From the NCBI GenBank assembly GCA_964372865.1, contig CAYJRW010000003.1:1-33302 (forward strand): a stretch of DNA of 33,302 nt, in the 5' to 3' direction. Origin of the DNA: an uncultured Candidatus Saccharibacteria bacterium. GTDB lineage: Bacteria > Patescibacteriota > Minisyncoccia > Minisyncoccales > 2-12-FULL-40-12. The translations under genes were made by a program, and so were the position numbers. Of the stretch, positions 1 through 22,175 are shown piece by piece (position 1 is the first letter of the stretch; every line of letters begins with the position of its first letter). Below the pieces are notes generated by a model. It was not told where the DNA came from. It was given only the letters and a program-made list of their open reading frames with translations, and made no database searches.

Positions 1-1516
1 AATCTTTTAAGATTTGAGGTCTTTCTAAGGTTTTTACTTCTGAATGAAGCCATTGCGCCTGAATACCTTCTTGGGCCAAGTAATCAGACAAAGCTTCAGC
101 TAATCTTTTGGTGAGGGTTATGGCTAAAACCCGCTGTTTTTTCGCCGCGCGATTTTTTATTTCTTTAATTAAATCCTTAATCTGGTTTTTGGTCGGCCGA
201 ACTTCTATTGACGGCTCCAAAAGCCCTGTAGGTCTGATTAACTGCTCAACAATATATCCCGCAGATTTTTTCTTTTCCTCCAGGGCTGGGGTGGCGGAAA
301 CATAAATTGCTTGCTTGACTCTATTTTCAAATTCTCCAAAAGTCAAAGGGCGGTTGTCAAGAGCAGAAGGCAGTCGGAAGCCGTATTCAATTAACGTTTC
401 TTTGCGCGCCCTGTCCTGAACCGCCATAGCGTGAAGCTGAGGCAGGGTTTGATGTGACTCATCTATGAATACTAAGAAGTCTTTTGACGAGTGAAGCGAA
501 GCAGAGCTCGTCGAGAGATGAGACGAAGTCTCAGCGAACGGGAAATAATCAAGCAAAGCGTAAGGAGCTTGGCCGGGTTTCCTGAATTCCAAGTGCCTTG
601 AATAATTTTCAACGCCATGGCAGTAGCCGGTTTCTTTGAGTATTTCCAAGTCGTAATTTGTTCTTTGCTCCAAGCGCTGCGCCTCCAGCAACTTCTTTTG
701 CTTTCTTAATTTTTTAAGCTGCTCTTGCAATTCCAATTTTACATTTTCAATGGCAATTCCCAACCTATCTTGCGGTGTCACCCAAAAATTAGCAGGGAAC
801 AATCTAAAAGAATCTAGAATATAGAATCTAAAATCTAGAATATCGCCCTTGCCTTTTAAAACATTGATTTTATCGCCGGAAAATTCAATTTGTAGAATCT
901 TTTTTCCGGTAACCAAGTAAATTTCAACAATCTCTCCCCTCACGCGAAAAGTTCCTGGTTTAAAATCAACATCGTTTCTTTGATACTGCAGAGAAGTTAA
1001 ATGCGAAAGAAGACTCCTTCTTTTTATTTTTTGACCTGATTTTATCTCCAGAGAAACCTGCTGGTAGATCTCTGGCGAGCCAATATTGTAAATGCAAGAG
1101 ACCGAGGCAACCACAACAACATCCTTTCTGGTTAAAACGTCTTGAGTTGCTGCGTGGCGCAACCTATCAATTTCTTCATTTATCTTGGCATCTTTTTCAA
1201 TATATGTATCTGTCTGGGGGATGTATGCCTCTGGTTGGTAATAATCATAGTATGAGACAAAAAAATGAACTCCGTTTTCCGGAAAAAATTCTTTGAATTC
1301 CTGATAAAGCTGGGCTGCTAAAATTTTATTAGGCGATATTACCAAAGTTGGTTTTTGCGTTTTTTCAACGACAGCAGCCATAGCGTATGTCTTGCCTGAG
1401 CCCGTCACTCCCAAAAGCACCTGGTCTTGAACTCCGGCCTGTAAATTTTTAACCAATTTTTCAATAGCTTGAGGCTGATCGCCCTTGGGATTAAATGGAG
1501 AAACAAGCTTAAACAT
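1..1516 (-). CDS. uvrB: Excinuclease ABC subunit B (UvrB), N-terminal ~505 codons; the 3' end runs off the window
   Basis: Absent from the ORF track, presumably because it has no stop in the window. Reverse translation from the ATG (complement of 1514-1516) reads MFKLVSPFNPKGDQPQAIEKLVKNLQAGVQDQVLLGVTGSGKTYAMA (Walker A). Hand-verified further on: YCHGVENYSRHLEFRKPGQAPYALLDYFP...DFLVFIDESH (DESH box). Confidence 0.9.
   Translation of the reverse strand, partial: MFKLVSPFNPKGDQPQAIEKLVKNLQAGVQDQVLLGVTGSGKTYAMAAVVEKTQKPTLVISPNKILAAQLYQEFKEFFPENGVHFFVSYYDYYQPEAYIPQTDTYIEKDAKINEEIDRLRHAATQDVLTRKDVVVVASVSCIYNIGSPEIYQQVSLEIKSGQKIKRRSLLSHLTSLQYQRNDVDFKPGTFRVRGEIVEIYLVTGKKILQIEFSGDKINVLKGKGDILDFRFYILDSFRLFPANFWVTPQDRLGIAIENVKLELQEQLKKLRKQKKLLEAQRLEQRTNYDLEILKETGYCHGVENYSRHLEFRKPGQAPYALLDYFPFAETSSHLSTSSASLHSSKDFLVFIDESHQTLPQLHAMAVQDRARKETLIEYGFRLPSALDNRPLTFGEFENRVKQAIYVSATPALEEKKKSAGYIVEQLIRPTGLLEPSIEVRPTKNQIKDLIKEIKNRAAKKQRVLAITLTKRLAEALSDYLAQEGIQAQWLHSEVKTLERPQILKD
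482..541. repeat. Palindromic dispersed repeat, copy A, in-frame inside uvrB
   Basis: Encodes FAETSSHLSTSSASLHSSK between DYFP and DFLVFIDESH, where canonical UvrB has only ~3 residues. Contains hairpins GACGAG..CTCGTC and GAGAC-GAA-GTCTC. The 18-nt core GAGACGAAGTCTCAGCGA (520-537) is identical to 2443-2460. Confidence 0.7.
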
Positions 1517-1530
1517 GGTAATATGACAAC

Positions 1531-2826
1531 ATGTTCGCTGAACTTCGTTCATCTCACGCCCTTTGCTTCGCTCGGGCGAAAGATTTGATTAGAAAATTTA
1601 TTCCTTCTTTTTTGTTGAGTTGGTATCACTTCACTTTAGCATTTTTCGGAGCTGTTTTCTATGGGTTTCCTTCAAGGCGTATTAAAGTAATCGGAGTGAC
1701 CGGCACCAACGGTAAAACCACGACAACCGAGATGATTTCAAGGATTTTGGAGGAAGCAGGATACAAAGTCGCCTTGATGAATTCCATTAGGTTTAAGATT
1801 GGCGGCAAGGAAGAGCAAAATATGTTTAAAATGACTATGCCTGGCCGTTTTTTTATTCCGAGATTTTTAAGGAGGGCGGTAAATAACGGCTGTAAATTTG
1901 CTGTTTTGGAAGTTACTTCTGAAGGGATAAAACAGCATCGGCATCGCTTTATTAATTTTAATACCGCGGTTTTTACCAATTTGACACCAGAACACATTGA
2001 AGCTCACGGCTCTTTTGAAAAATACAGAGCGGCTAAAGCAGAGCTTTTTAAATCCTGTAAGAACATTCACATCATTAATCGGGACGACCCAAATGCAGAT
2101 TATTTCTTGCAGTTTCCCAGCGCCAAAAAATTTCTTTACAGCATAAAAGGCAAAAATTCGCTGCTTGACAGCACAAAACTTTTGGGCGAGTTTAACGTTT
2201 ATAACGCTTTGGCGGCAGCTAAAGTCGGTTTGTCGCAAGGAGTTGTTTGGGAAGCTTGCAAAAAAGCAATAGGAAAAATTGAAGTAATTCCGGGCAGAAT
2301 GGAAGAAGTGATTTCCGAACCTTTTAAAGTTTTTGTTGACTACGCATTCACTCCCAACGCTTTGGAAAAGGTATACCAAACGCTAAATTCAAAATTCAAA
2401 ATTCAAAAACTACGCCGAGCTTCGCGAGGCGAAGGGGAAGACGAGACGAAGTCTCAGCGACCTTCAAAATTAATTTGTGTTTTGGGTTCTACTGGCGGCG
2501 GCCGTGATAAATGGAAAAGGCCGGTTTTGGGCGAAATCGCTGCTAAATATTGCGATGAGATTATTGTGACTAATGAAGATCCTTACGACGAGATTCCAAT
2601 GGAAATTATTGAAAAAGTGTCTCAGGGAGCCGGAGGAAAGGCAGAAAAAATTTTAGACAGACGGGAGGCAATTAGAAAAGCGCTTGAGTTGGCAAAACTG
2701 AACGATGTGGTGATAATCACAGGCAAGGGTTCAGAACCCTGGATGTGTGTCCAAGGCGGCAAAAAAATTTCGTGGGACGACAGACAAATTGTCAGGGAAG
2801 AATATGAAAAAATACGAAATACTTGA
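1531..2826 (+). CDS. murE: Mur ligase, short MurE-type UDP-N-acetylmuramoyl-tripeptide synthetase
   Basis: 431-aa ORF with GVTGTNGKTTT P-loop, GSTGGGRDKWKRP and ITGKGSE motifs. The first ~18 codons are repeat copy C, so an in-frame TTG at 1585 (MIRKFIPSFLL...) is an alternative start. Confidence 0.8.
   Translation: MFAELRSSHALCFARAKDLIRKFIPSFLLSWYHFTLAFFGAVFYGFPSRRIKVIGVTGTNGKTTTTEMISRILEEAGYKVALMNSIRFKIGGKEEQNMFKMTMPGRFFIPRFLRRAVNNGCKFAVLEVTSEGIKQHRHRFINFNTAVFTNLTPEHIEAHGSFEKYRAAKAELFKSCKNIHIINRDDPNADYFLQFPSAKKFLYSIKGKNSLLDSTKLLGEFNVYNALAAAKVGLSQGVVWEACKKAIGKIEVIPGRMEEVISEPFKVFVDYAFTPNALEKVYQTLNSKFKIQKLRRASRGEGEDETKSQRPSKLICVLGSTGGGRDKWKRPVLGEIAAKYCDEIIVTNEDPYDEIPMEIIEKVSQGAGGKAEKILDRREAIRKALELAKLNDVVIITGKGSEPWMCVQGGKKISWDDRQIVREEYEKIRNT
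1534..1582. repeat. Palindromic dispersed repeat, copy C, inverted relative to copy A, in the uvrB/murE divergent spacer
   Basis: GTTCGCTGAACTTCGTTCATCTC matches the reverse complement of copy A (GTTCGCTGAGACTTCGTCTCATCTC) apart from two differences (one indel). Followed by hairpin CGCCC..GGGCG. Confidence 0.6.
2383..2466. repeat. AAATTCA x3 tract plus palindromic dispersed repeat, copy B, in-frame inside murE
   Basis: Encodes NSKFKIQKLRRASRGEGEDETKSQRPS between ALEKVYQTL and KLICVLGSTGGGRD. This spacer is ~21 aa longer than in E. coli MurE as I recall it. Shares the 18-nt core with copy A. Confidence 0.65.
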
Positions 2827-3211
2827 GCATAAGGCCGATTTGAAAATCAGGGTTTTTGGCAAAATAAAAAAAGAGCTTTTCTCAAACGCTGTTTTGGGCA
2901 TGGAAGACGGCCTTCGGCCTAAACTAAAAACGCAAATCGCAAAACGCAAAACTATAACAATACAATCTCTCGATTTATCGTCTCTTTTGGTTGATTTTTT
3001 GAGCGAGGTTTTGTATTCGATTCAAACCAATAGGGAAATATACAATAAAATAAAATATATTAAATTTTCAGACACAGAGATTAAGGCTGAACTCTCAGGC
3101 AAAAAAGCGGAAAGATTTAACCAAGATATAAAGGCAGTAACTTATCACAACTTAGAGATTAAACAAGAACCAAACGGAGCATGGACTGCCACCGTGTTAT
3201 TTGATATATAA
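2804..3211 (+). CDS. Archease (RtcB activator)
   Basis: MKKYEILEHKADLKIRVFG... and a C-terminal VTYHNLEI motif typical of archease. ATG at 2804 lies inside the track ORF 2747..3211, overlaps the murE end and is immediately upstream of rtcB. Confidence 0.8.
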   Translation: MKKYEILEHKADLKIRVFGKIKKELFSNAVLGMEDGLRPKLKTQIAKRKTITIQSLDLSSLLVDFLSEVLYSIQTNREIYNKIKYIKFSDTEIKAELSGKKAERFNQDIKAVTYHNLEIKQEPNGAWTATVLFDI

Positions 3212-3215
3212 ATGT

Positions 3216-6155
3216 ATGATTTCAAAAAAGGATTTCAGAAAAATTAACGATTATCTCTGGGAGATCCCAAAAGAACTCAGGCAAGATATGCAGGTTCCGG
3301 CCAGAGCTTACGTTTCAGAAAAAATGCTGGAAGAAAGTTTTAAAGACAGATCTCTTGAGCAGTTGGTAAATGTTGCCACACTACCCGGAATTCAAAAATA
3401 TGCTTTGGCAATGCCGGATATGCATGAGGGCTACAGCTCGCCTATTGGCGGAGTCGCGGCAATCAGAACGTCTGACGGAATTATTTCGCCAGGAATGTGC
3501 GTATCCGGAGATACAAAAGTTCTCCATAGTTTGGGGTACTACTTGCCAATTCGTAACTTTGAAAATAGAAGATCAGACGAGTTAGCTTGTTTTGCTTTTG
3601 ATAGTAAAAAAAGGGAAAGCGGCTCAACATCAAGGTTTTTCAAATTAAAAGTTAACCCATCTATCTTTATAGTAACCACAAAAACCGGCAAGAAAGTTAA
3701 GGCCACCGGCGACCATCCTTTTTATACTCAGGCTGGAATGCGGCCCCTTAAAGACCTCAAGGTAGGAGCTAAAGTTGCCATTTATCCTTTTGAGGGCGTG
3801 CCTTATGAAGAGCCCAAAGAAGAAATACTTGTTGACGAAGAGAAGATAAGAAAATCATGGACCTCTTTAAGTCAAAATCCAACAGGCCATGGTTTGGAGC
3901 AGGTTTTAAATCGATTAAGAGCTAGGGAGCTTCTTCCGCTCAAAACCACTTCTTGGCAGCTCCCTTATTTACTTAAAATTATGGGATATTTACTGGGTGA
4001 TGGAGTAATGTACTTTGAGAACAAAAAGGAGAGGGGAGCCATTGGGTTTTACGGAGATAAAGCAGACCTAAATTTGATAAAGAAAGACCTTAAGAAAATT
4101 GGAATCAACGGAATAGTCATGGAGCGTTCAAGAAAGCATAAAATCACAACTTTTTATGATACATATAAGTTTGATAGAGTCGAAACTAGTTTAAGAGTCC
4201 GCTCCAGCAGTTTGACTATTTTGCTGCAAGTTTTGGGAATGCCTCTTTACAAAAAAACAAGTCAGGACTTTACCCTGCCGAAATGGTTATTCGGACTTCC
4301 TTTGTGGCAAAAGAGATTGTTTATAGCCGGCATTTTTGGGGCGGAATTGAGCTCGCCAAAAACTCTTACGGGGCATGGGTTTAATTTTTATACGCCGATT
4401 ATGGGCATTAATAAAAATAAGAAATTTTTAGAAAGCGCCAAAGAAATCCTCAGGCAGATTTCTTCTATTTTGAATGAGTTTGGTGTACAAACACTCAAAA
4501 TAAGCCAAAGAAGAGAATTATTTAACAAAAACGGCGAGGTTTATCGGGCAAGATTAATTTTATCGGCTAAACCTGACAGCCTTATTAACCTCTGGAGCAA
4601 AGTTGGCTATGAGTATCACCAGGGGAAACAATTTTTAGCCAGTGTAGCCGCTCACTTTTTAAAAACAAAGCAAGATTTTATTAGAAACAAAATTTTATCA
4701 CAAGGAATTAAGTCTCGGAAAGGGCTGATTAAATTCAAAGAGTCAGATGCTGACATTCTTAAGAGACTAATAGAAAAAGGTGGCAGAACATTAGCCCGAC
4801 CTTTTGCTGGCCAATTCTCTACTTTTAATGAGTTCATAAAAATTGTTACTAAGGGTCTTGGCAAAAGCGGCGCTGTATGGGATGAAATTGAGAGAGTTGA
4901 GAAAAATGCCTTTCAAGATTTTGTTTATGACTTTACGGTAAATCACCCCGACCATAATTTCGTCGCCAACAATTTTGTGGTTTCAAATTGCGGGTATGAC
5001 ATTAACTGCGGCATGAAGTTTTTGAAGTCAGAATATACCGAAGAAGAAATTAGGCCTTACCTGGAAAGTTTGGCAACAGAAATTCAAAAAGAGGTTCCTT
5101 CAGGACTGGGCAGGGGAGGACAAATTAAATTAAGTGTTGGGCAAATAGATAAACTTTTAGAAGGCGGAGCTCCTAAATTGGTAGAGCAAGGTTATGGTGA
5201 AAAAGATGATGCCGAAAATTGCGAAGCCAGAGGAGGATTAGAGTGGGCTGATTCTTCTGTGGTTTCAGACCGCGCCAAACATCGCGGGAGAGATCAGGTT
5301 GGTACTCTTGGTTCGGGCAACCACTTTTTGGAGCTTCAAAGAGTTGATGAAATTTTTGATAAAGTCGCGGCTAAGGCCTTTGGCCTCTTCGAGGAGCAAG
5401 TCGTTATTATGGTTCATACAGGTAGCCGAGGTCTGGGCCATCAGGTATGCACAGATTATCTAAGAGAATTTATTCCTTTAATGGAGAGGAAATATAAAAT
5501 CATGGTCCCAGACAGAGAATTTGCCTGCGTTCCTTTTAATTCGCCAGAAGGCCAGAGATATTTTTCTGCAATGGCAGCAGCAGCCAACTACGCCTGGTCT
5601 AACCGCCAGATGATTGCGCATTTTGTCAGAAAGGCCTGGGAGGCTGTTTTGGGAAAGAAAACTTCTGGACTTTTGGCTCTATATGATGTAGCCCACAATA
5701 TCATAAAAAAAGAAAAATATTCCATTGACGGCAAGGACACAGAAGTCGCTGTTCACAGAAAAGGTGCTACCAGGGCTTTTCCGCCGGGGCATTATGAAAT
5801 TCCGGAAAAATATCGCGATGTCGGGCAGCCAGTAATAATACCAGGCTCCATGGGCACTGCTTCATATATTTTAGCTGGGACGAAAGAAGGAGAACAAGCA
5901 TGGTATTCCACGTGTCACGGAGCAGGCAGAACAATGTCTCGGAAGGAAGCAACAAGACGGCTGTCTGGACAAGAAGTCGTAAAAAAGTTAGAATCAAAAG
6001 GAATTGTGGTGAAGTGCTGGTCATTGCGAGGAATAGCCGAAGAAGCTCCTCAGGCATACAAGGATGTAGATAGCGTTGTTGACGTGGTTCACAATGCCGG
6101 CCTTTCAAAAAAGGTGGCGCGGCTGGTGCCTTTGGCCGTTATTAAGGGAGAATAA
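3216..6155 (+). CDS. rtcB: RNA-splicing ligase RtcB, interrupted by an intein (extein ~482 aa)
   Basis: Extein motifs MPDMHEGYSSPIGGV, GYDINCG, GSGNHFLE, HTGSRGLGHQV and STCHGAGR. The track ORF starts at TTG 3201; the first in-frame ATG is 3216. Confidence 0.9.
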   Translation: MISKKDFRKINDYLWEIPKELRQDMQVPARAYVSEKMLEESFKDRSLEQLVNVATLPGIQKYALAMPDMHEGYSSPIGGVAAIRTSDGIISPGMCVSGDTKVLHSLGYYLPIRNFENRRSDELACFAFDSKKRESGSTSRFFKLKVNPSIFIVTTKTGKKVKATGDHPFYTQAGMRPLKDLKVGAKVAIYPFEGVPYEEPKEEILVDEEKIRKSWTSLSQNPTGHGLEQVLNRLRARELLPLKTTSWQLPYLLKIMGYLLGDGVMYFENKKERGAIGFYGDKADLNLIKKDLKKIGINGIVMERSRKHKITTFYDTYKFDRVETSLRVRSSSLTILLQVLGMPLYKKTSQDFTLPKWLFGLPLWQKRLFIAGIFGAELSSPKTLTGHGFNFYTPIMGINKNKKFLESAKEILRQISSILNEFGVQTLKISQRRELFNKNGEVYRARLILSAKPDSLINLWSKVGYEYHQGKQFLASVAAHFLKTKQDFIRNKILSQGIKSRKGLIKFKESDADILKRLIEKGGRTLARPFAGQFSTFNEFIKIVTKGLGKSGAVWDEIERVEKNAFQDFVYDFTVNHPDHNFVANNFVVSNCGYDINCGMKFLKSEYTEEEIRPYLESLATEIQKEVPSGLGRGGQIKLSVGQIDKLLEGGAPKLVEQGYGEKDDAENCEARGGLEWADSSVVSDRAKHRGRDQVGTLGSGNHFLELQRVDEIFDKVAAKAFGLFEEQVVIMVHTGSRGLGHQVCTDYLREFIPLMERKYKIMVPDREFACVPFNSPEGQRYFSAMAAAANYAWSNRQMIAHFVRKAWEAVLGKKTSGLLALYDVAHNIIKKEKYSIDGKDTEVAVHRKGATRAFPPGHYEIPEKYRDVGQPVIIPGSMGTASYILAGTKEGEQAWYSTCHGAGRTMSRKEATRRLSGQEVVKKLESKGIVVKCWSLRGIAEEAPQAYKDVDSVVDVVHNAGLSKKVARLVPLAVIKGE
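3498..4988 (+). mobile_element. Full-length intein (497 aa) with LAGLIDADG homing endonuclease domain, in rtcB
   Basis: Begins CVSGDTKVL after ISPGM. Block B is ATGDHPF. LAGLIDADG motifs are MGYLLGDGVMY and IAGIFGAELSS. Ends NNFVVSN followed by +1 Cys (CGYDINCG). Junction codons were located by hand at 3498 and 4986-4991. Confidence 0.85.
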
Positions 6156-7293: not shown

Positions 7294-9798
7294 ATGAGAA
7301 AGACACTTCTCACTTCTGAATCAGTAGCGCCAGGCCATCCAGACAAAGTTTCAGACGCCATTGCTGACTCGGTTTTGGACGAGATTTTAAAAAAAGATAA
7401 ATACGCCAGGGTTGCCTGCGAGGTTTTCGCCAGTAAAGGTTATGTGATTGTCGGCGGTGAAATAACAACCAAGGCCTGGGTTGACATTAATAATTTGGTC
7501 AGAGAGGTGATCCGCGACATTGGCTACGATAAGTCAGAGTACGGTTTTGATTGGAAGAATGTGGCTGTTTTAAACACAATTTCCGGACAGTCCCCGGACA
7601 TTGCCAGGGGCGTCAGAAAAACCGGAACCAAAAAACAAGGAGCAGGAGACCAAGGCAGCTCTCAGGGTTATGCTTGTTCAGAGACAAAAGAGCTGATGCC
7701 CTTGCCCATAATGCTGGCGCATAAACTAGTCAGGAGATTAGCCGAAGCCCGTAAAAAGAAAATTCTGTCCTATTTGAGGCCTGACGGCAAATCGCAGGTA
7801 ACTTTGGAATACCATAACGGAATCGCCAAAAGACTGGACAATGTTGTTATTGCCGCCCAGCACGACCCCGATGTTTCTTTAAGCAAAATAAGAAAAGACA
7901 TTATTGAAAAAGTTATTAAACCTGTTTGCGGAAAATTTTTGGACAAAAAAACAAAGTTTTACATTAACAACACCGGCCGCTTTGTTATTGGCGGTCCGGT
8001 TTCTGACACAGGCATGTCAGGCCGAAAAATAGTTGTTGATAATTACGGCGTGGGATTTTCGGTGGGAGGAGGGTCATATTGCGTTCACGGGGACTCTTTA
8101 GTAGCCACGGAAAAAGGACTTCTTAAAATAAAAGATATGCAAAAAGAGGTGGAAAAAGAAATTATTGTAAAGACTGATATCCATCCTCATAAATCAGAAA
8201 TCTGGTATGATAACGGATTAAGGAAAACAATTAAAATCGTTACCGGGGGTATGTATGAATTAGAGGGAACTGGAAATCAAAAAATCCGAGTAATAGATGA
8301 GAGGGGAAATTATGTTTGGAGAAGTTTAGAAAAATTGAAGAGAGGTGATTTTGTTACTATCCAATGTAAAAATAGATTGTTTGGCAAAGAAGTTGAACTG
8401 AGCAACTTCCATTACATCTACAAGGAAGGAACAGCTGAAGGAAGAAAAAATAAATTTATTTATCCCCAAAAATTAACCGCGGATTATGCCTATCTTTTAG
8501 GATTACTTATCGGGGACGGTAATTGTATGAATAGGGGCGGAATTTGGATTTGTGTTTGTGAAGAAGAACAGAAAAAAAATGTTCAAAATTTATACAAAAG
8601 ATTGTTCGGTAGAGAGGGTAAAATTTATGACCATTGGGCTTATGTGGGTGGCGTGGAAATGAGAGCGTTCTTAGAGTATCTTGGTTTAGAATATAAAAGA
8701 AGCTGGGAGAAAGAGGTCCCTTGGAGTATTTTCCAAGCCCCTAAAGAGATAGTAGCTGCTTTTTTGAGAGGATTATTTGATACCGATGGAAGCGTGAGAA
8801 TCGGGGGCCGATATAAAAATTCCTTAGATATAAAATTTTATTCAAGCTCTCTGAGATTAATAAAACAAGTTCAGCAACTTTTATTAAATTTTGGAATTAT
8901 TTCTCTTATTGGAGAAATCGATAATAGAGGGAGAAAATTCTATATTAACGGAGAACAACGCATATCAAGGAGAAAGATGTATAGTTTACGGGTTAAAGGA
9001 GGGAAATCGTGTGAGATTTTCAAAAAAGAAATAGGCTTTGGTTTGCCAAGGAAACAGAAAATTTTAGATCTGGTTAATTTAAGTAAAAAAAGAGATTATT
9101 TAATTATCCCCCATCAAAAAAAGAAAATTCAAAAACTTTGGCAAAAGCTGACTCATCATGAAAGATATTTAGATAAAGCAAAAATAAAGAGGTTTACCAA
9201 CTCTTCCGCCGGGAAGGCAACCAAAGAATTAACTTACAATAAGTTAGAAAATTTCCTAGACATTTATCACGCGAGATTTAGAAATGATAAAGATTTCAAG
9301 TATCTTAAATATCTAGCCAAAATGAGTCATTTTTATGATAAAGTAGAAGAAATTACGTATTCATTTGACTCTGTTTACGACCTTTTCGTTCCCAAGGCTC
9401 ACACCTTTATAGCTAATGGGTTTGTTTGCCATAACTCCGGCAAAGACCCGACAAAAGTTGATAGGTCTGGCGCCTATATGGCAAGATATATTGCCAAAAA
9501 CATTGTGGCTTCGGGCCTGGCTGAAAAATGCCTGGTTCGCTTGTCTTATGTTATTGGCGGCAAGGAGCCCACAGAACTAAGCATAGACACTTTTGGTTCA
9601 GTTCGAGTTTCAGAAGAAAAATTACTAAAAATTATTCCCAAAGTTTTTGATTTGTCGCCGGGAGGAATGATACAGCAGCTTAATCTTTTGAGGCCAATTT
9701 ACAGAAAAACTGCGACTTTCGGCCACTTTGGAAGAAAAGAACCTGAGTTCACCTGGGAAAAAACAGATAAAATAAAAGACATTTTGAAGCTAGTTTAA
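7294..9798 (+). CDS. metK: S-adenosylmethionine synthetase, interrupted by an intein (extein 382 aa)
   Basis: [30 protein letters not shown] and [15 protein letters not shown] motifs. The GGGSY / [14 protein letters not shown] motif is split by the insert. Confidence 0.9.
8080..9435 (+). mobile_element. Full-length intein (452 aa) with LAGLIDADG homing endonuclease domain, in metK
   Basis: Begins CVHGDSLVA after GGGSY. LAGLIDADG motifs are [11 protein letters not shown] and [11 protein letters not shown]. Ends GFVCHN with +1 Ser (SGKD). Junctions located by hand at 8080 and 9433-9438. Confidence 0.85.
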
Positions 9799-9968: not shown

Positions 9969-10044
9969 GCCCTCATAGCTCAATTGGACAGAGCGCAGGC
10001 CTCCGGAGCTTGAAATATAGGTTCAAGTCCTATTGAGGGCACCA
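9969..10044 (+). tRNA. tRNA-Arg, anticodon CCG, with encoded CCA
   Basis: Hand-folded cloverleaf. Acceptor GCCCTCA/TGAGGGC; D stem GCTC/GAGC; anticodon stem CAGGC/GCTTG (one G-T); loop CTCCGGA; T arm ATAGG-TTCAAGT-CCTAT; discriminator A then CCA. Confidence 0.9.
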
Positions 10045-10163: not shown

Positions 10164-10829
10164 ATGAAAAAGTATTATATTATTTTGGGCATTGTCGCAG
10201 TATTGCTCGTTCTTAGGTTTGGAGTGATTCCGAAGTTAAGTAACACGCAAGTTGCTGCTCCTTCATGCTCTGTTACCACCTTAAAAAATCTTTCTGAAAA
10301 TGCTTCACTAATTGTTATTGGTAAAGCTGTTAGTGAACGCGTTCAGACACATAATTTCTTTGATCGGGGAACAATTTTTACCTATACCGCTATTGGTGAT
10401 ATTGATGTGATGAAAGGCAGCTTGACTGGTGCCACTCTCGAAGCGAAACAGACTGGCGGTTGCGACCTACTGACAGGCTACTGCGTCTACACATCCGTAA
10501 TGTCTCCGTTTGAGATAGATAAAAAGTATCTACTATTTCTCCGACCGGCTACGAAGTACCAGCCAACGCCTGCCGAGCCACCTCCTGCTTCGTTTGGGGA
10601 AAAAGAAACTAAGAAGTTGGGTGAGATAGAGGAGGGGATCTATAGTGGCTTTAGCGGTTGCGGAGGTAAATACCTTTTGAGTGGAGCTATATCTAGTGCT
10701 GAGATTAAAGAGATAATTCTCAGTGGCGATGAAGCACGGTGGCAGACTTTTCTTGGCACCCTGTCTCGCGGTGAGACGCAAGATAACGTTTCGCCACAAC
10801 CAACAGCATCGCCGGGCATCGAACGCTAA
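10164..10829 (+). CDS. Hypothetical membrane-anchored or secreted protein (221 aa)
   Basis: N-terminal hydrophobic segment MKKYYIILGIVAVLLVLRFGVI, a Pro-rich linker (PTPAEPPPASF) and several Cys. No family recognised. Confidence 0.5.
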   Translation: MKKYYIILGIVAVLLVLRFGVIPKLSNTQVAAPSCSVTTLKNLSENASLIVIGKAVSERVQTHNFFDRGTIFTYTAIGDIDVMKGSLTGATLEAKQTGGCDLLTGYCVYTSVMSPFEIDKKYLLFLRPATKYQPTPAEPPPASFGEKETKKLGEIEEGIYSGFSGCGGKYLLSGAISSAEIKEIILSGDEARWQTFLGTLSRGETQDNVSPQPTASPGIER

Positions 10830-10872
10830 CTAGTCAAAGAATATCTCTTTTTCCACATAAATTTTTTAAAGA

Positions 10873-10895
10873 ATTTGCCGCCAAAGAAAAACTTG
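10873..10895 (+). repeat. 23-nt perfect direct repeat, copy 1 (ATTTGCCGCCAAAGAAAAACTTG)
   Basis: Identical string at 11798-11820. Each copy is followed by a GC hairpin and then an AAAA(C/T)TG tract. Confidence 0.85.
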
Positions 10896-10921
10896 AAATT
10901 GTTGCCTCGCTTTGCGAGGCC

Positions 10922-10992
10922 AAAACTGCCAAAGAACCTGATAAAAATATCGGCTCGAATTGCATTTTAATTTTGGGAAAAGAAAATTTTTT
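10922..10992 (+). repeat. Intergenic repeat R2 (~71 nt), paralog of R1
   Basis: AAAACTGCCAAAGAACCTGATAAAAATATCGGCTCGAATTGCATTTTAATTTTGGGAAAAGAAAATTTTTT. Preceded by hairpin GCCTCGC-TTT-GCGAGGC, so the hairpin is conserved in position but not in sequence. Confidence 0.7.
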
Positions 10993-11050
10993 CATAAGAT
11001 TTGAAGAAAACGGTCTAGAATAAGGGCTTTTTTGTTTGGTTCCTTTCTAT

Positions 11051-11079
11051 TGACATATAATTATTTATTTGTTATACTA
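11051..11079 (+). promoter_or_regulatory. Near-consensus sigma70-type promoter (TTGACA-17 nt-TATACT)
   Basis: TTGACA at 11051-11056, a 17-nt spacer, and TATACT at 11074-11079. Confidence 0.6.
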
Positions 11080-11085
11080 TAAGCA

Positions 11086-11243
11086 GAAAATTGACATCGG
11101 AATACAATGTTCTGCGGCAACAAAGAGAGAGTTAAGTAGTTAGTTTCTTCTTTGTTGCCGCAGAGGAATCGCTTCATAACGAAGCGGTGGCGGTGGCAGG
11201 GCGGCCGTGTGCCATCCAAAAACACGGTATAAGGAGGTCCCAA
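11086..11243 (+). promoter_or_regulatory. Hairpin-rich ~155-nt 5' leader ending in a strong SD
   Basis: Perfect 15-bp stem 11112-11126/11149-11163 with a 22-nt loop. CGCTTC-ATAAC-GAAGCG at 11170-11186. CCGTGT..ACACGG at 11205-11227. AAGGAGG at 11231-11237, 6 nt before the ATG at 11244. Confidence 0.5.
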
Positions 11244-11678
11244 ATGCAGTTCACAGTGAAGTGGACCGGAGAGCCGTCGGCAGAGTCGAAGTGTCCGTAT
11301 ATCCGTGGGGTCATCGCTCTTGGCGCAGGGTTCGGGATGGACGAGGGTGAAGGGCAGCAGCTCCGCGCTCGGAGCGAAAGCGGTGAGAACACGCTCTCCT
11401 TCAATCACCCCGATACCCCCGAGTGTCTGGATCACGCCCTCGATCGCGTGCGCCGCATGCAGGATGATCTGCGACGGATGTATGGAGTGGAATCGGCCTA
11501 CGAGGTCAATGGGAAGCCGTTTCCAGCCTACATCGTCGAGGTCTTTGGGGAGCTCTGCTCCATGCGGACCGTGGTCCAGCAGGTCGTTAGTGACCTGAGA
11601 GCCACTCGCGGCGTGCCGCTGCTCCGCGACAAACGGATTGCCGCAGCCCGCATCAAGCTCGAAGGAGCGATCAAGTAA
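11244..11678 (+). CDS. Orphan GC-rich protein (144 aa), MQFTVKWTGEPSAESKCPYIRGV...
   Basis: Strong SD at correct spacing; lies inside track ORF 11187..11678; terminator follows. No family recognised. Composition differs sharply from the surrounding genome. Confidence 0.55.
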   Translation: MQFTVKWTGEPSAESKCPYIRGVIALGAGFGMDEGEGQQLRARSESGENTLSFNHPDTPECLDHALDRVRRMQDDLRRMYGVESAYEVNGKPFPAYIVEVFGELCSMRTVVQQVVSDLRATRGVPLLRDKRIAAARIKLEGAIK

Positions 11679-11713
11679 TATCGCTTCGCAACAGGTTGAG
11701 CAGATCTCTGCTC

Positions 11714-11750
11714 CCCGCCATGTCTTCGGACTGGCGGGCTTCTTCTTTTT
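11714..11750 (+). terminator. Rho-independent terminator
   Basis: CCCGCCA-T-GTC-TTCG-GAC-TGGCGGG followed by CTTCTTCTTTTT. Confidence 0.75.
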
Positions 11751-11797
11751 ATGAAATTATTAAAGAACAGTTGTATGCGCTCTACGCACCTAAATCG

Positions 11798-11820
11798 ATT
11801 TGCCGCCAAAGAAAAACTTG
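11798..11820 (+). repeat. 23-nt perfect direct repeat, copy 2
   Basis: ATTTGCCGCCAAAGAAAAACTTG, identical to 10873-10895 and 925 nt downstream of it. Confidence 0.85.
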
Positions 11821-11995
11821 CTTGTCCGCCACATAGCCCGAAGGGCGACGGCGGAAAATTGTCCCCAGTACTATAACGTTTCGCGTTAGCTACGGGGCAG
11901 GCGCCGCCTTTCCGAATTTTCGCCGGGGGAATTCCTCGCCGCCGCAAGCGGCGAAATGCGTTCGGACTAATTCAAGAATACTGTACCAAAGCTTC
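11821..11995 (+). ncRNA. GC-rich structured non-coding segment (candidate RNA X)
   Basis: Consecutive hairpins: TCCGCC..GCCC-GAA-GGGC..GGCGGA, TAACG-TTTCG-CGTTA, GGCG..CGCC and TCGCCGC-CGCAA-GCGGCGA. No credible ORF. Shares ordered blocks with 14337-14400. No promoter identified, so the strand is inferred from the downstream terminator. Confidence 0.4.
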
Positions 11996-12704: not shown

Positions 12705-13393
12705 GTACCACCACAATAACTAGCAGCAAACAAAAAATATTAATAGTGTTTTACAGCTTGGGAGGCAGCGTGGTGAAGCTTGCGAAAGAAATCGCCAAAG
12801 GCGCCAAAGAGGTTGAAGGCACCGTGGTTGAAATAAAAAGAGTCAAAGAACTGATACCTGACAGTGTCTTTGAGAAAAATCCCGGAATGAAGCGCGATAG
12901 AGAAAAGCTGGAAAAAGAATTTGAAGAAGCGACAGTTGAGGATTTGATTGAAGCTGACGGAGTAGCCATAGGAACGCCAGTACACTTTGCTTCTTTTGCT
13001 TCTCAGATAAAGCAGTACCTGGACCAGCTGTCTCCGGTGTGGCTGGAAGGAAAACTGGTGAATAAACCTGTTTCTGTTTTTTGCACTTCAGGGAGTATGC
13101 ATGGGGGTGAAGAGGTGGCGCTTTTTTCGCTTATGTCTCCGCTCATTAACCTTGGCATGATACCTGTTGGCATACCCTACCCGATTCAGGGAGAGGGGCC
13201 GGAATTTGACGCAGGCAGCCCTTTCGGGGCCATTTACATAACCGGTCACGGAAAAAACAGGAGAGAGCTTTCAGAAGACGACAAAAAAGTGGCAAGAATC
13301 CTGGGAAATCGTCTAGCCACTATGACGAGAATAATTATGTGCGGCTGCCAAAGCTGTAAAGGTTGCCGCTTAATGTCCCAAAAAACTCATTAA
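12701..13393 (+). CDS. wrbA: WrbA-type flavodoxin-like NAD(P)H:quinone oxidoreductase
   Basis: KILIVFYSLGGSVVKLAKEIAKGA..., GTPVHFASFASQIK and SGSMHGGEE motifs. ATGA start/stop overlap with the upstream membrane gene. Cys-rich tail MCGCQSCKGC. Confidence 0.7.
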   Translation: MSTTTITSSKQKILIVFYSLGGSVVKLAKEIAKGAKEVEGTVVEIKRVKELIPDSVFEKNPGMKRDREKLEKEFEEATVEDLIEADGVAIGTPVHFASFASQIKQYLDQLSPVWLEGKLVNKPVSVFCTSGSMHGGEEVALFSLMSPLINLGMIPVGIPYPIQGEGPEFDAGSPFGAIYITGHGKNRRELSEDDKKVARILGNRLATMTRIIMCGCQSCKGCRLMSQKTH

Positions 13394-13415: not shown

Positions 13416-13489
13416 TTCGTTCGCAGAGAACTCAGTTCTCTTCTCACTCCCGAGCTTTAGCGAAAGGGAGAGAAGAAAGTTTTCTTTCT
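13416..13489. repeat. Palindromic dispersed repeat, copy D (wrbA/pyrH spacer)
   Basis: TTCGCAGAGAACTCAGTTCTCTTCTCAC resembles copy C. Hairpin CTTCTC(AC)TCCC..GGGAGAGAAG. CTCTTCTCAC is shared with copy E. Confidence 0.5.
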
Positions 13490-13516
13490 TCGACCGCCTC
13501 ACGTCCCCATCATGAG

Positions 13517-14482: not shown

Positions 14483-15058
14483 ATGCAGTATAAAATCGTT
14501 ATTTCCGGGGCTGCTCAAACTGGCCATTGTTGCAAAGGAATTAAAGCATTGTCAAAAGAGGTTGGCAGAGAGGTGGCCCGCCAAAAGTGTATTTTGGTTA
14601 CAGGAGCTACAACAGGCATCCCTTATTTTGCAGCCCAGGGCTGCAAGGAAGAGTCAGGTTTTAACGTCGGTTTTTCTCCTGCCATTTCTGAAGCGGCTCA
14701 TTTAAAAACATACCGGCTACCTGTCAGCCCTTTTGATGTCATGATTTATACTGGAGCTGACTACGTTGGCAGAAATGTAATTATGACAAAATCAGCCGAC
14801 GGCATTATCATCATTTGCGGAAGAATGGGCACTTTGCATGAGTTTGTGACGGCTTTTGAAATTCAAAAACCAATAGCCGTCTTGGAAGACACAGGAGGCA
14901 CTGCCGACAAAATAAGACACATCGCCACAGGACCTTACAGAGGGATAAAAAAAATTATTTACGACAAAAACCCAAAACAGTTAGTTAAAAAGCTTATTAA
15001 TTTAATCAAAAAAGAAAAAAACAGAACTCCAAAGCCGCGCTGGCGAAAGCCTAGCTAG
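14483..15058 (+). CDS. LOG / TIGR00725-like Rossmann-fold nucleotide-binding protein
   Basis: VTGATTGIPYFAAQG and ICGRMGTLHEF resemble the GGGxG and PGGxGTxxE motifs of the LOG/SLOG fold. Confidence 0.55.
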   Translation: MQYKIVISGAAQTGHCCKGIKALSKEVGREVARQKCILVTGATTGIPYFAAQGCKEESGFNVGFSPAISEAAHLKTYRLPVSPFDVMIYTGADYVGRNVIMTKSADGIIIICGRMGTLHEFVTAFEIQKPIAVLEDTGGTADKIRHIATGPYRGIKKIIYDKNPKQLVKKLINLIKKEKNRTPKPRWRKPS

Positions 15059-15123
15059 GTGAGAGATAAATACGAAGTATTCAGCGATCATTAAAGGTCG
15101 AACTAAATAAAAAAATATAAAAT

Positions 15124-15921: not shown

Positions 15922-16200
15922 ATGGAAAAAGTTAGGGCCCACATTTTGGTTTCAGGCCGTGTGCAGGGCGTCCTTTTTCGAGACGGCATCAAAAGGAAGG
16001 CCAAAAACTTAGGGCTGGCAGGTTGGGTCAGAAATTTGCAATCAGGGCAAGTCGAAGCGGTTTTTGAGGGAGAAAAAGATAAGGTTGAGCAAATTATTAA
16101 TTGGGCAAGGCGAGGCCCAATTTTAGCTAAAGTTGAGGAGTTGGAAGTCGATTGGCAAGAATGTAAAGGAGAGTTCAGTGATTTTGAGATAAAGTTCTAA
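15922..16200 (+). CDS. acyP: Acylphosphatase
   Basis: 92 aa with VSGRVQGVLFR and GWVRNL..G.VEAVFEG signatures. Confidence 0.85.
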   Translation: MEKVRAHILVSGRVQGVLFRDGIKRKAKNLGLAGWVRNLQSGQVEAVFEGEKDKVEQIINWARRGPILAKVEELEVDWQECKGEFSDFEIKF

Positions 16201-16240
16201 GAGCTATAGCTCTTCTCACGTCTCAGCTAAAGCTTCGGCA
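16201..16240. repeat. Palindromic dispersed repeat, copy E (short)
   Basis: GAGCTA/TAGCTC palindrome followed by CTCTTCTCACGTCTCAGCTAAAGCTTCGGC, similar to copy D. Confidence 0.4.
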
Positions 16241-16241
16241 T

Positions 16242-16556
16242 ATGATTAAGATTTTTTGGACCCAACACGCAAAAGAAAAGCTCCGCTATTACCGATTGTC
16301 AGAAAAAATGGTCTTGCGCATTTTGAAGAAACCTGACAGGAAAGAAGAAGGCATAGCTGAAGACACCTTAGCCAATATGCAGATTTCTGGCACAAAAAAA
16401 CATCCCACAGAAGCTTGGATGATGTATGTAATTTTAAAAAAACCCAAAGGCGTTAAAATCATTAGCGCCTGGCGGTATCCCGGTAGAACGCCAGAAGGCC
16501 AAAGGCCCATTATTCCAGACGATGTTCTGGAAGTTCTGTTAAAAGAAAAAATTTGA
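16242..16556 (+). CDS. Hypothetical small protein (104 aa), weakly DUF4258-like
   Basis: ORF with ATGA-type overlap to the next gene. N-terminus WTQHAKEKLRYYRLSEKMVLRIL. No partner gene seen. Confidence 0.35.
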   Translation: MIKIFWTQHAKEKLRYYRLSEKMVLRILKKPDRKEEGIAEDTLANMQISGTKKHPTEAWMMYVILKKPKGVKIISAWRYPGRTPEGQRPIIPDDVLEVLLKEKI

Positions 16557-20252: not shown

Positions 20253-21362
20253 ATGAGGAAATTTTTTATCGTTTTTGTCGTATTTTTCTTAGCGATAGCA
20301 TTTGTTTACTTTTATTTTTTCAGAGAAACATCTATTGATGAGACAGTTGTTGAGGAAATCGTGCCTGGCAAAGATACTGCTGTTGTTGCCGAAAATCTGC
20401 AGATTCCCTGGGAGCTTGCTTTTTTGCCAGACGGCACAATCTTGGTAACAGAAAGGCCAGGAAATGTGGCAGTTGTCAGAGAAGGTAGCTTCAGTCGTAT
20501 TTCAATCCCTGACGTATATCACGTTGGCGAAGGCGGGCTTTTGGGCATGGCTTTACATCCCGACTTTGGGGAGAATAAATTTTTATATTTTTATCTAACA
20601 TATAAAGAGGGAAGCGAAATCAAAAACAGAGTTGAGAGATACAGGTTTGATAACAATGCTTTGTCAGACAGAAGGGTTATTGTTGACGAAATACCGGGCT
20701 CTGGCAATCATAACGGCGGCAGAATTGCTTTTGGACCTGACGGTTATTTGTACATTACTACCGGCGACTCACAAACCCCTTCTTTAAGCCAAGACATCAA
20801 TTCTTTGGCAGGAAAAATTTTACGATTGCTCCCCGACGGTTCAATTCCTGATGATAATCCTTTCGGCAACGCGGTATATACTTTTGGGCATCGCAATGCT
20901 CAGGGTTTGGCTTGGGACAATGAAGGCCGTTTGTGGAGCACAGAGCATGGCCCCTCTTCTTTGTTTTTGCCTAATTGTTGCCAAGACGAGTTAAATCTGA
21001 TAGAAAGAGGCAAAAATTACGGCTGGCCAGACAGCCGAGGCGACAACGTTCAGCCAGGCACTGTTGGGCCTGTCTTGCATTCAAAAGAAGATACATGGGC
21101 TCCTGCAGGCGTTGTCTACCACGAGGACTCTTTATTTTTTGGCGGGTTGAGAGGGCAAACTTTGTATGAGGCGGTTTTACAGGGAGACAAAGTCATTGAG
21201 TTAAAAAAGCACTTTCAAGGGGAATTTGGCAGAGTACGCGTAGTTTCACTGGGGCAAGAAAACTTCCTTTATATTTCCACTTCCAATACAGATGGTCGAG
21301 GCAGTCCTCGTCAAAACGACGATAAAATAATCAGAATAATTACGGATTTACTAAGTCGCTGA
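20253..21362 (+). CDS. PQQ-dependent soluble sugar (glucose/sorbosone) dehydrogenase, YliI-like, with N-terminal signal anchor
   Basis: LQIPWELAFLPDG..LVTERPG, GGRIAFGPDGYLY.TTGD and GHRNAQGLAWD motifs. The track ORF starts at 20241, which overlaps a TTGACA-17/18 nt-TAAAAT promoter, so ATG 20253 (MRKFFIVF...) is preferred. Confidence 0.8.
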   Translation: MRKFFIVFVVFFLAIAFVYFYFFRETSIDETVVEEIVPGKDTAVVAENLQIPWELAFLPDGTILVTERPGNVAVVREGSFSRISIPDVYHVGEGGLLGMALHPDFGENKFLYFYLTYKEGSEIKNRVERYRFDNNALSDRRVIVDEIPGSGNHNGGRIAFGPDGYLYITTGDSQTPSLSQDINSLAGKILRLLPDGSIPDDNPFGNAVYTFGHRNAQGLAWDNEGRLWSTEHGPSSLFLPNCCQDELNLIERGKNYGWPDSRGDNVQPGTVGPVLHSKEDTWAPAGVVYHEDSLFFGGLRGQTLYEAVLQGDKVIELKKHFQGEFGRVRVVSLGQENFLYISTSNTDGRGSPRQNDDKIIRIITDLLSR

Positions 21363-21420
21363 AGCTGTGCTTCATCTCCATCTTCGCTTTCGCTCAGCTT
21401 CCGCTTCGCAAAAGCTCGCT
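21361..21420. repeat. Palindromic dispersed repeat, copy F
   Basis: GCTTCATCTCCATCTTCGCTTTCGCTCAGCTTCCGCTTCGC resembles copy C (GTTCATCTCACGCCCTTTGCTTCGCTCGGG). Confidence 0.4.
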
Positions 21421-21422
21421 AA

Positions 21423-22175
21423 ATGATGAACGCTGAAGATTTCAAAAGAAAATATGGCCACGAAGAAGCAGGGTTTTGGTATCCGAGGGTAACAGCCATT
21501 TGCGAGATTATAGCCAAGCCCGGTATGGAAAAATGGCTGGCTGACTCTGGCAGTTATGACTTAATGATGCAAAAAAGAAGGAAAGTTCTTGACTGGGGCA
21601 GCGCAATAGACAGGGTAGCAAAAAGTATATTTAAAGGAGAAAGCCCGGAAATTAATCCAACTATCAATCCTTCAATTGGCGCCTTTTTAAGTTGGTTAAA
21701 GCGGCATAAGATAGTATTTTTTGATGCCGACAGAAAAGTTGTCAGCAAAAAACATTTTTATGCAGGCACAACAGACATTATTGCCGAGATTGATGGCCAA
21801 TTCGGGATTTTGGACATTAAAACCAGCAGCAATTTTTGGGACGAGCATTTTGTGCAGACAGCGGCCTACTGCCAGGCCTTTAACGAGCAAGAATCAAAAA
21901 AAGTTAAAACGCATTGGATTTTGAAAGTTGACCAGTATCAGGAATGCCAGAATTGTTTTGCCAAAAAAAGAGAAAAAGCAGGCAAGGAAGAGATTAAAGG
22001 CAATAATTTTGACTGCCAGCATAACTGGTCTGTTTTCAAAGGAGTGTGCGAGTTGAAAGAATCCTCAGAACACGAAACCTATATGAGAATGTTTTTGCAC
22101 GCCAAAAAACTCTGGGAACTGGCAAACCGCCGCTTCCTCTCTCACATAGAAAACTATCCCAACAATAAATTCTAA
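21423..22175 (+). CDS. PD-(D/E)xK (RecB/Cas4-like) nuclease-fold protein with C-terminal Cys cluster
   Basis: GTTDIIAE...GILDIKTS (D...D-x-K), QTAAYCQAF (QxxxY-like), and the Cys cluster CQNC...C...C. Confidence 0.55.
   Translation: MMNAEDFKRKYGHEEAGFWYPRVTAICEIIAKPGMEKWLADSGSYDLMMQKRRKVLDWGSAIDRVAKSIFKGESPEINPTINPSIGAFLSWLKRHKIVFFDADRKVVSKKHFYAGTTDIIAEIDGQFGILDIKTSSNFWDEHFVQTAAYCQAFNEQESKKVKTHWILKVDQYQECQNCFAKKREKAGKEEIKGNNFDCQHNWSVFKGVCELKESSEHETYMRMFLHAKKLWELANRRFLSHIENYPNNKF

Follow-up and report, generated by a model that had tools for sequence, protein, structure and literature searches.

The question raised by this stretch of DNA is why short, GC-rich palindromic segments of similar sequence recur in it both between genes and, without breaking the reading frame, inside uvrB and murE. 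The window (the whole stretch analysed, 33,302 nt with 41% G+C) is the entire contig CAYJRW010000003.1, whose host is a Parcubacteria-type bacterium of the Candidate Phyla Radiation (CPR). An earlier note, made from the letters alone, had listed six such segments and likened them to the Rickettsia palindromic elements. A 45–57-nt double-hairpin repeat is present on the contig in at least seven copies, plus a weak overlapping inverted one, and these probably represent a small non-autonomous mobile DNA element that is widespread in Parcubacteria-type CPR genomes.

The 18-mer GAGACGAAGTCTCAGCGA, reported earlier as shared by the intervals 482–541 and 2410–2466, was found at both (520–537 and 2443–2460), nowhere else in the window and in none of the shuffled sequences. 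A covariance model, R1, made from 18 copies of other genomes and two copies of the window, recovered the remaining four listed copies and a seventh, copy G (Table 1). As a second model, R2, was built from 35 copies that all came from other genomes, with no window sequence, the circularity of R1 is removed; run with filters off, R2 matched all six listed elements with E-values of 1e-13 to 1e-3, and the similarity that defines them as one family therefore held under formal statistics. The list itself was sound and incomplete, with R2 adding copy G and the overlapping copy D'. Below the window copies R2 shows noise only, the best remaining match (11.4 bits) being the reverse strand of a genuine copy. 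The element at 1534–1582 is, as had been described, opposite in orientation to the copies with the 18-mer, and copies D and D' share hairpin 2, forming a doublet similar to a REPIN (a hairpin-forming pair of repetitive extragenic palindromic, REP, sequences), with D' a weak match (E 0.03). The family was not among the top families of a general repeat search of the window, which overlooked it because the copies differ by insertions and deletions (indels).

Table 1. Copies of the repeat in the window, their two host genes and the heptamers beside copy C, with scores from the covariance models R1 and R2.
Feature	Position	Strand	Evidence
Copy A	486..539; R2 match 480-540	(-)	R1 70.2 bits; R2 62.4 bits, E 1e-13
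Copy B, 45-nt short subfamily	1534..1578; R2 match 1532-1583	(+)	R2 50.1 bits, E 1e-10
Copy C	2409..2462; R2 match 2403-2463	(-)	R1/R2 61-65 bits; R2 61.0 bits, E 3e-13
Copy D	13418..13474	(+)	R2 21.8 bits, E 1e-3
Copy D', probable inverted partner of D	13444..13496	(-)	R2 15.6 bits, E 0.03; weak match
Copy G, absent from the earlier list	15028..15090	(-)	R2 43.6 bits, E 4.5e-9
Copy E	16193..16245	(+)	R2 23.8 bits, E 3e-4
Copy F, longer hairpin 2	21353..21426	(+)	R2 33.3 bits, E 1.5e-6
uvrB, host gene of copy A	1..1516	(-)	runs off the window leftwards; phmmer against PDB UvrB, E 1e-181
Short Mur ligase of the MurE type, carrying copies B and C	1531..2826	(+)	phmmer against PDB MurE, E 1e-48 to 1e-54
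Three tandem TTCAAAA heptamers	2388..2408	(+)	fourth at 2463-2469; read from sequence

The family is built from a unit of 54 nt (18 codons), of which variants of 45 and 57 nt occur; the unit is GC-rich within AT-rich DNA. It is laid out as G-N-TCGCTGAG-ACTTCGTCTC-ATCTC, then a nested hairpin around GCTTCGC, then CTCGGC, so that hairpin 1 (GAGAC-TTC-GTCTC) is followed by ATCTC and by the nested hairpin 2, and the canonical copies give a gap-free alignment to (G)G-TCGCTGAGACTTCGTCTC-ATCTC-CCGCC-TCG-CCCCGCTTCGCGGGG-CTC-GGC-WWTTGA. When brought into a common orientation (482–541 and 2410–2466 read on the minus strand, the other listed copies on the plus strand), the six listed segments of the window all show TCGCTGA, a hairpin of 4–7 bp with a 3–4-nt loop, (A/T)TCTC(A/C)C and the nested hairpin around GCTTCGC. 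The ends TCGCTGAG and CTCGGCGA are imperfectly inverted, each belonging to a separate hairpin. Either strand folds as two adjacent hairpins, the complementary strand having C-GAA-G triloops in both of them. The GCGAAGC core is a very stable DNA mini-hairpin, and these loops and this core would fit a structure formed at the level of DNA. In the 45-nt subfamily, which comprises copy B and sibling copies in L083 and L085 (L-numbers such as L056, L106 and L123 are labels of contigs fetched for comparison), hairpin 1 is GAAC-TTC-GTTC, and over the family the hairpin-1 stems vary between GAGAC, GAGGC/GCCTC, GAGCC/GGCTC, GAAC/GTTC, GAGGAC/GTCCTC and GAAGC/GCTTC.

This variation preserves pairing. Among 36 copies, in an alignment that had been fitted to the model, pairing is kept in 91% of the stem cells, compared to 79% after column shuffling and 33–51% with slid partners; both sides have changed in 10 of the 14 pairs, and the covariation score (RNAalifold and pair counts) was reached by none of 500 shuffles. 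An additional pair links positions 3 and 27, at which G-C, C-G, U-A and A-U all occur. The mismatches G.T (18) and A.C (10) are not clearly asymmetric, and no single functional strand is therefore indicated. The folding energy of single window copies was not significantly better than that of shuffles, so the structural support comes from covariation across the family, together with consensus folding at z = -3.4 and -4.4 on the two strands. The hairpins proposed earlier are thus borne out by the family. A search of Rfam gave no match at E<=1 for the window copies or for four loci with canonical copies.

Within genes, the repeat is found as precise additions to otherwise conserved proteins. Copy A lies in frame in uvrB, in the sense of the gene, and encodes FAETSSHLSTSSASLHSS between DYFP and KDFLVFIDESH. 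This segment is a gap against the solved UvrB structures of the PDB and is present in none of the 120 closest homolog clusters, most of which read DYF-P(K/R/E/S/D)-DFL. The insert directly before the DESH box had been noted earlier at 19 residues; its length is 18, and the K that follows is native. Copy C lies in frame in the linker between domains 2 and 3 of MurE, antisense to the gene, and encodes ..LRRASRGEGEDETKSQRP.. there. The linker peptide RRASRGEGEDETKSQRP is missing from solved MurE structures and from most homologs, and the insert is also missing from the 69%-identical ortholog in L106, on the same contig as the L106 uvrB; it amounts to 54 nt or 18 codons, fewer than the approximately 21 residues first estimated. 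Alignment with orthologs therefore upholds the proposal that both segments are lineage-specific insertions, absent from solved structures and closest relatives, as well as the opposite orientations in which the two genes read a stop-free element. By alignment to the solved structures, both inserts would be placed in surface loops; an AlphaFold2 prediction for the window UvrB (49 close homologs) had a mean predicted local distance difference test score (pLDDT) of 46 and was unusable.

Copy B had been taken for an intergenic spacer upstream of murE. Comparison with homolog starts suggests otherwise, as the copy sits exactly between the murE ATG (1531–1533) and codon 2 (AAA), with the native AAAGA next. 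Homologs of murE start MKDLIKKFIPSF, the L106 ortholog and most homologs having MK(D/N/E)LIKKF, and the window protein would read M-FAELRSSHALCFARA-KDLIRKFIPSF. In-frame insertion may thus have taken place a third time here, in which case copy B would not be a spacer; the source gene call starts murE 27 codons downstream of ATG 1531.

The heptamers around copy C form a perfect (TTCAAAA)4 without the element, which was inserted at a unit boundary and 5' of TTTTGA on the element strand. A target duplication or excision footprint was considered for these flanks and rejected, given the perfect (TTCAAAA)4 that is left once the element is removed, the (AACCTAA)5 that L106 has at the site without any element, and eight other filled/empty pairs that are free of duplication. 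The murE interdomain linker is itself a heptamer microsatellite in both relatives, (TTCAAAA)4 in the window and (AACCTAA)5 in L106, and in L090 and L144, too, the element has tandem heptamers next to it.

Placement inside genes is common in the family as a whole. Of 138 unique copies, 59 (about 43%) lie deep in open reading frames (ORFs), that is, the frame stays open for 150 nt or more to either side of them; 41 are in sense and 18 in antisense. Nearly all of the sense copies read as (V/L/F)AETSSHLxPRxAxRGS or AELRSS, and about two-thirds of the antisense copies are in the QKPSEA....GDETKSQRP frame. On each strand of the consensus, two frames are open and the third contains a TGA; those open frames that are rich in Arg and Leu are hardly ever used, and the frame with the element's own TGA was never seen inside genes. 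The encoded peptides are hydrophilic and rich in Ser, Pro, Ala and Glu. Further hosts of copies inside genes are ClpB, LeuRS (two copies in one gene) and YchF.

The other copies of the window are found at gene junctions. Copy D occupies part of a 124-nt spacer between a gene similar to flavin mononucleotide (FMN) reductase, which ends at 13393, and pyrH, whose true start is Met 13518, both D and D' preceding that start. Copy G overlaps the 3' end of a SLOG/LOG-like gene (14483–15058; Pfam) and, in antisense, supplies its last ~10 codons (TPKPRWRKPS) and its stop. Copy E takes up the entire 41-nt spacer between an acylphosphatase gene and the next ORF, with the upstream TAA in the 5' part of the element and the downstream ATG (16242) in the 3' ATATGA. 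With copy F, the TGA of TCGCTGA is the stop (21360–21362) of an upstream GSDH-family dehydrogenase gene (Pfam) and the downstream ATG (21423) lies in AAATGA 3' of the element; to judge from the sequence, deletion of this copy would give back a 4-nt ATGA stop/start overlap.

When the fetched contigs were compared all against all, filled/empty pairs of the same site were obtained, in which the indels are precise. Five pairs differ by exactly 54 nt (L123/L180, L182/L180, L089/L162, L170/L117/L130 and L151/L132) and three by 57 nt (L113/L156, with one flank 99.9% identical, L170/L117 and L142/L185). The inserted block corresponds to model positions 2–55 (G-N-TCGCTGAG...CTCGGC) and sits immediately 5' of a native W4GA (four A or T bases followed by GA), as TTTTGA in L089/L162, AATTGA in L170/L130, TTTTGA in the murE linker and AAAGA(C/T) in the window uvrB and at the murE start. 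W4GA is already present at the empty sites of uvrB, murE, L089/L162 and L170/L130. A flank logo of 63 unique canonical copies shows G at position 60 in 89%, A at position 61 in 97%, A/T at positions 56–59 in 78–90% and G at position 2 in 92%, more distant flanks being background. No target-site duplication was found in the eight filled/empty pairs or at the three window sites, which sets the element apart from cut-and-paste miniature transposable elements with inverted repeats (MITEs), as these are defined by such a duplication.

Beyond the window, the 18-mer is found in 25 contigs of a species-representative genome collection, of which about 20 are CPR with 32–46% G+C, and several genomes have multiple contigs with it; three high-G+C matches without the rest of the element are due to chance. 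A 23-mer was found in 90 metagenome contigs, and the family is present in about 100 Parcubacteria-type contigs. The covariance model gave 131 matches in 549 kb, about 51 of them without the seed and with other stem sequences, and L106, a relative contig chosen without bias, has 2–3 copies in 11 kb. The 639-kb Nealsonbacteria chromosome CP179888.1 contains two copies or more. No account of the family was found in Rfam or in the searchable literature on palindromic or in-frame repeats of CPR/Patescibacteria. A metagenome-assembled genome (MAG), DATKUR01, labelled Candidatus Humimicrobiaceae (Actinomycetota), has at least five copies on contigs of 37–41% G+C (L083, L087, L096 and L100), which reflects either a bin that is mislabelled or contaminated, or an extension of the family beyond CPR.

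These observations suggest how a mobile element of this kind could behave. The block would be inserted without target duplication immediately 5' of a native W4GA, and catalysis might be provided in trans by a single-strand DNA enzyme that recognizes hairpins, of the histidine-hydrophobe-histidine (HUH)/IS200-IS605/REP-associated tyrosine transposase (RAYT) type or an analogue. As CPR genomes are almost all coding, most insertions hit genes. A length that is a multiple of three and one usable frame per strand (..AETSSHLxPRxAxRGS.. or ..QKPSEAxxxxGDETKSQRP..) would make the element translatable, the third frame meeting its own TGA. Two kinds of survivor would then be expected, those translated into an additional loop where the protein tolerates one (in the pre-DESH loop of UvrB, in the interdomain linker of MurE or directly behind a start codon) and those at gene junctions, where the element gives the upstream stop and the downstream ATG (in ..ATGA) stays intact. 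Conservation of the copies would reflect continued recognition or recombination-driven spread.

Several results weigh against mobility. No transposase of any kind is linked to the element: a regular expression for the IS200/IS605 TnpA N-terminal motif, a pattern not designed for RAYT, had no match in 824 kb of element-bearing contig fragments, and a scan of viral contigs for the 18-mer had none either. The geometry is unlike that of IS608, with the conserved flank 0–5 nt from hairpin 2 and a whole element of only 54 nt, and, given this geometry and the missing TnpA, a mobilizing enzyme is hypothetical only. The 41:18 ratio of sense to antisense copies could stem from peptide tolerance or from strand bias. 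Lastly, the part of the element outside the seed is 95% identical between orthologous copies, compared to 79% for the 150-nt flanks, in 14 of 14 disjoint orthologous pairs, figures that the collection of copies with an exact seed biases upward to an unknown extent. Such conservation is unexpected for decaying junk, and the copies may be doing something.

This last point bears on the view that the host retains the element as a functional signal, chromosomal or RNA, which lies in genes only for want of intergenic space. Candidates would be a site for a nucleoid, gyrase or replication protein (as proposed for REPs and bacterial interspersed mosaic elements, BIMEs), a DNA-uptake or recombination signal, CPR bacteria being naturally DNA-scavenging, or an element of mRNA structure. 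In its favor, orthologous copies keep their own sequence far better than the surrounding coding DNA, synonymous positions included, and some of their differences are compensatory; in ClpB, the copies of two genomes are distinguished by 2 of 56 positions, which are both halves of one base pair, with flanks about 80% identical. Lineages that diverged deeply also share an identical 5' half. Identity in the flanks drops with distance, from 0.86–0.90 beside the element to about 0.70–0.74 at 135–150 nt (orthologous loci, L081–L186), a gradient that is possibly in part an alignment effect and matches the pattern expected where recombination, perhaps as co-conversion, carries the element along with short flanks. 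Even with the seed bias, the effect is large enough to make pure neutral decay of the copies unlikely. Gene conversion between paralogs was discarded as the source of the conservation, as hairpin 2 is 95% identical between orthologs and 68% between loci; copies at different loci share only 68% identity.

The host-kept signal is nevertheless an unlikely explanation. The copies lie in either orientation relative to transcription, in genes and at sites that have no relation to one another, which argues against a cis-regulator acting at the transcript level, and their presence or absence differs between closely related contigs. There is no clear asymmetry of G.T and A.C mismatches and no match in Rfam, and the conservation that speaks for a signal is the quantity inflated by the exact seed and, for the gradient, possibly by alignment.

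A further proposal joins the mobile element to the conservation. It is possible, though doubtful, that the repeat is a new CPR-specific "coding hairpin" replicator or signal, in which hairpin-guided, duplication-free insertion at W4GA would be combined with purifying selection at each locus and with spread, together with short flanks, by DNA uptake and recombination. If true, this would make it the smallest known protein-embedded mobile element and the marker of a DNA-handling pathway unique to CPR.

That the inserted peptides are selected as useful flexible loops or linkers, with the DNA repeat a by-product, is very unlikely. The near-uniform frame (AETSSHL.. in almost all 41 sense copies) and the hydrophilic peptides placed at linkers are in agreement with it, but the two orientations give unrelated peptides, many copies are intergenic or merely supply a stop, and covariation acts at the level of base pairs, position 3 pairing with position 27 whatever residues are encoded. 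In addition, other lineages have unrelated palindromes at these same protein sites.

Those sites are entered repeatedly. About 38 of the 120 closest UvrB homologs have other inserts of 4–24 residues at the exact pre-DESH site, of at least 10 unrelated sequence classes. A second GC-rich palindromic family, with the palindrome CCCCGTTAAAT...ATTTAACGGGG, which contains GCGAAGC, encodes LHPVKSAEGGAKQFNGAR in several UvrBs and has a filled/empty pair of its own (L159/L175), and the UvrB of an Omnitrophota contig (L056) has at the same site a 45-nt palindrome of 69% G+C with a predicted folding energy of -30 kcal/mol. In the MurE linker the baseline is 4–13 residues, and many homologs have variants of 17–30 residues, some of which resemble peptides from weaker-scoring copies of the family elsewhere; a FANIRESQIR-type peptide also found in UvrB is among the variants too. 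The UvrB pre-DESH loop and the MurE linker are thus hot spots for several unrelated palindromic families, which may reflect either a target sequence or simply the tolerance of these proteins for extra residues. The second palindromic family has the form CCC(C/T)GTTAAAT...ATTTAAC(G/A)GGG and was seen at L106 4206–6194 (UvrB P0001) and at L159 ~2785–2847. The L004 UvrB likewise has a hairpin-forming insert at the pre-DESH site, so that with L056 and L004 such inserts are seen in other phyla too.

It is scarcely credible that the segments are removed or skipped at the level of RNA or translation, as a mini-intron or by programmed bypass, leaving the proteins unaltered. GC-rich hairpin inserts are translationally bypassed in a yeast mitochondrion, and here too hairpins flank the junctions, but a stop-free sequence with a length in multiples of three would be needless if it were skipped, and all deep copies are in frame, the indels are of 45, 54 or 57 nt and the TGA frame is never found in genes; intron and bypass were rejected on these constraints of frame and length. 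The chance of a compositional artefact of low-complexity DNA rich in GAAGC/GCTTC is negligible, for although the weakest window copies (D and E) score only 15–24 bits and single copies fold no better than shuffles, R2 matches seven copies at E 1e-13 to 1e-3 with a clean score gap, the 18-mer is in no shuffle and the same architecture is found in about 100 contigs, so that this reading is already refuted for copies A, B, C, G and F.

If the repeat is a mobile element, the question is which known system it resembles. RPEs (Rickettsia palindromic elements) are palindromic and lie in frame in unrelated housekeeping genes, in either orientation, and also between genes (PMC10969869). The CPR element shares with them the form of a dispersed palindromic repeat of a reduced genome that is read in frame either way, keeps the ORF open, adds a peptide and is also intergenic. 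RPEs are, however, about 100–150 bp and restricted to Rickettsia, whereas the CPR element is about a third of this length, has no target duplication and a fixed W4GA, and belongs to a different superphylum. The likeness drawn by the earlier note therefore stands for behavior (in-frame hairpins, 59 of 138 copies deep in ORFs, precise 54- or 57-nt indels) and is not supported as homology, a separation made by description, with no RPE consensus compared and no relationship in sequence expected.

Members of IS200/IS605 have no inverted ends, cause no duplication, carry a hairpin at each end and insert beside a specific 4–5-mer (PMC7290912). Duplication-free insertion beside a fixed site, with a hairpin near each end, is the single-strand signature of this type, and the analogy is drawn for this reason. 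The likeness is to palindrome-associated transposable elements (PATEs) mobilized by Y1 HUH enzymes, which also have no target duplication, a hairpin near each end and a short specific sequence on one side and, like the CPR element, are of a size that allows their entire length to be single-stranded at a replication fork (PMC7290912). The CPR element differs in being far shorter than PATEs, in an end-hairpin spacing unlike that of IS608 and in the missing TnpA motif in the 824 kb of fragments.

Like REPs and REPINs with their RAYTs, the CPR repeats are short, GC-rich, imperfect palindromes in many copies, sometimes in inverted doublets (D/D') and long conserved at orthologous sites. REPs are extragenic and have an unpaired GTAG or CGTC tag (PMC3733652). 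Measured against that description, 43% of the CPR copies are deep in ORFs and the consensus has no GTAG and has CGTC only within stem 1; being neither extragenic nor provided with an unpaired tag, the family falls outside the REPs as defined there. [quoted passage not shown] CRISPR repeats, integron attC sites and uptake sequences were considered and dropped for a dispersed single unit that is inserted as a 54-nt block and inside genes. The double-hairpin elements and GC clusters of fungal mitochondrial DNA have two hairpins side by side, are GC-rich within a compact genome that is rich in AT, and lie in spacers and occasionally in frame in protein genes. The CPR element is alike in form; the mitochondrial ones are organellar and unrelated in sequence.

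Very little is known of how CPR/Patescibacteria genomes change, and 18-codon elements that enter essential enzymes across the superphylum would explain many odd short insertions in CPR proteins. They would also affect gene calling through false N-terminal extensions, shifted starts and altered C-termini, all present in the window. The family would also map the insertion-tolerant loops of conserved enzymes, and points to an enzyme able to insert DNA at a defined short site with no duplication, while the conservation of its copies raises the question of whether they are parasites, mutualists or signals.

With regard to the rest of the contig, UvrB and MurE are 70–80% identical to proteins of Staskawiczbacteria, Nealsonbacteria, Portnoybacteria and other Patescibacteria MAGs. 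The classical MurE N-terminal domain is missing in the window ligase and in all close homologs (about 400 aa), the alignment beginning near residue 81 of the Escherichia coli enzyme. In L106, the contig of the closest relative, a diversity-generating retroelement (reverse transcriptase and bAvd) lies at 1426–2804 between murE and uvrB; the window has none at the corresponding place. An archease gene (2747–3211) precedes rtcB, and inteins are present in RtcB (984 aa; 3201–6155 (+)) and in MetK (834 aa; 7294–9798 (+)), the latter with a LAGLIDADG endonuclease domain, so that the contig hosts two other kinds of in-frame selfish element. A match similar to the AdoCbl-II (cobalamin) riboswitch lies at the right end of the contig (33196–33269 (+); 32.3 bits, E 0.0006), below the gathering score of 36.5. 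A G+C-rich island at ~10400–11970, directly downstream of tRNA-Arg(CCG) (9969–10044), reaches 76% per 45-nt window against 41% overall, with a 59-nt direct repeat that is 81% identical (10091/10937), an exact 23-mer (10873/11798) and ORFs on both strands without a Pfam match, and may be an integrated foreign segment.

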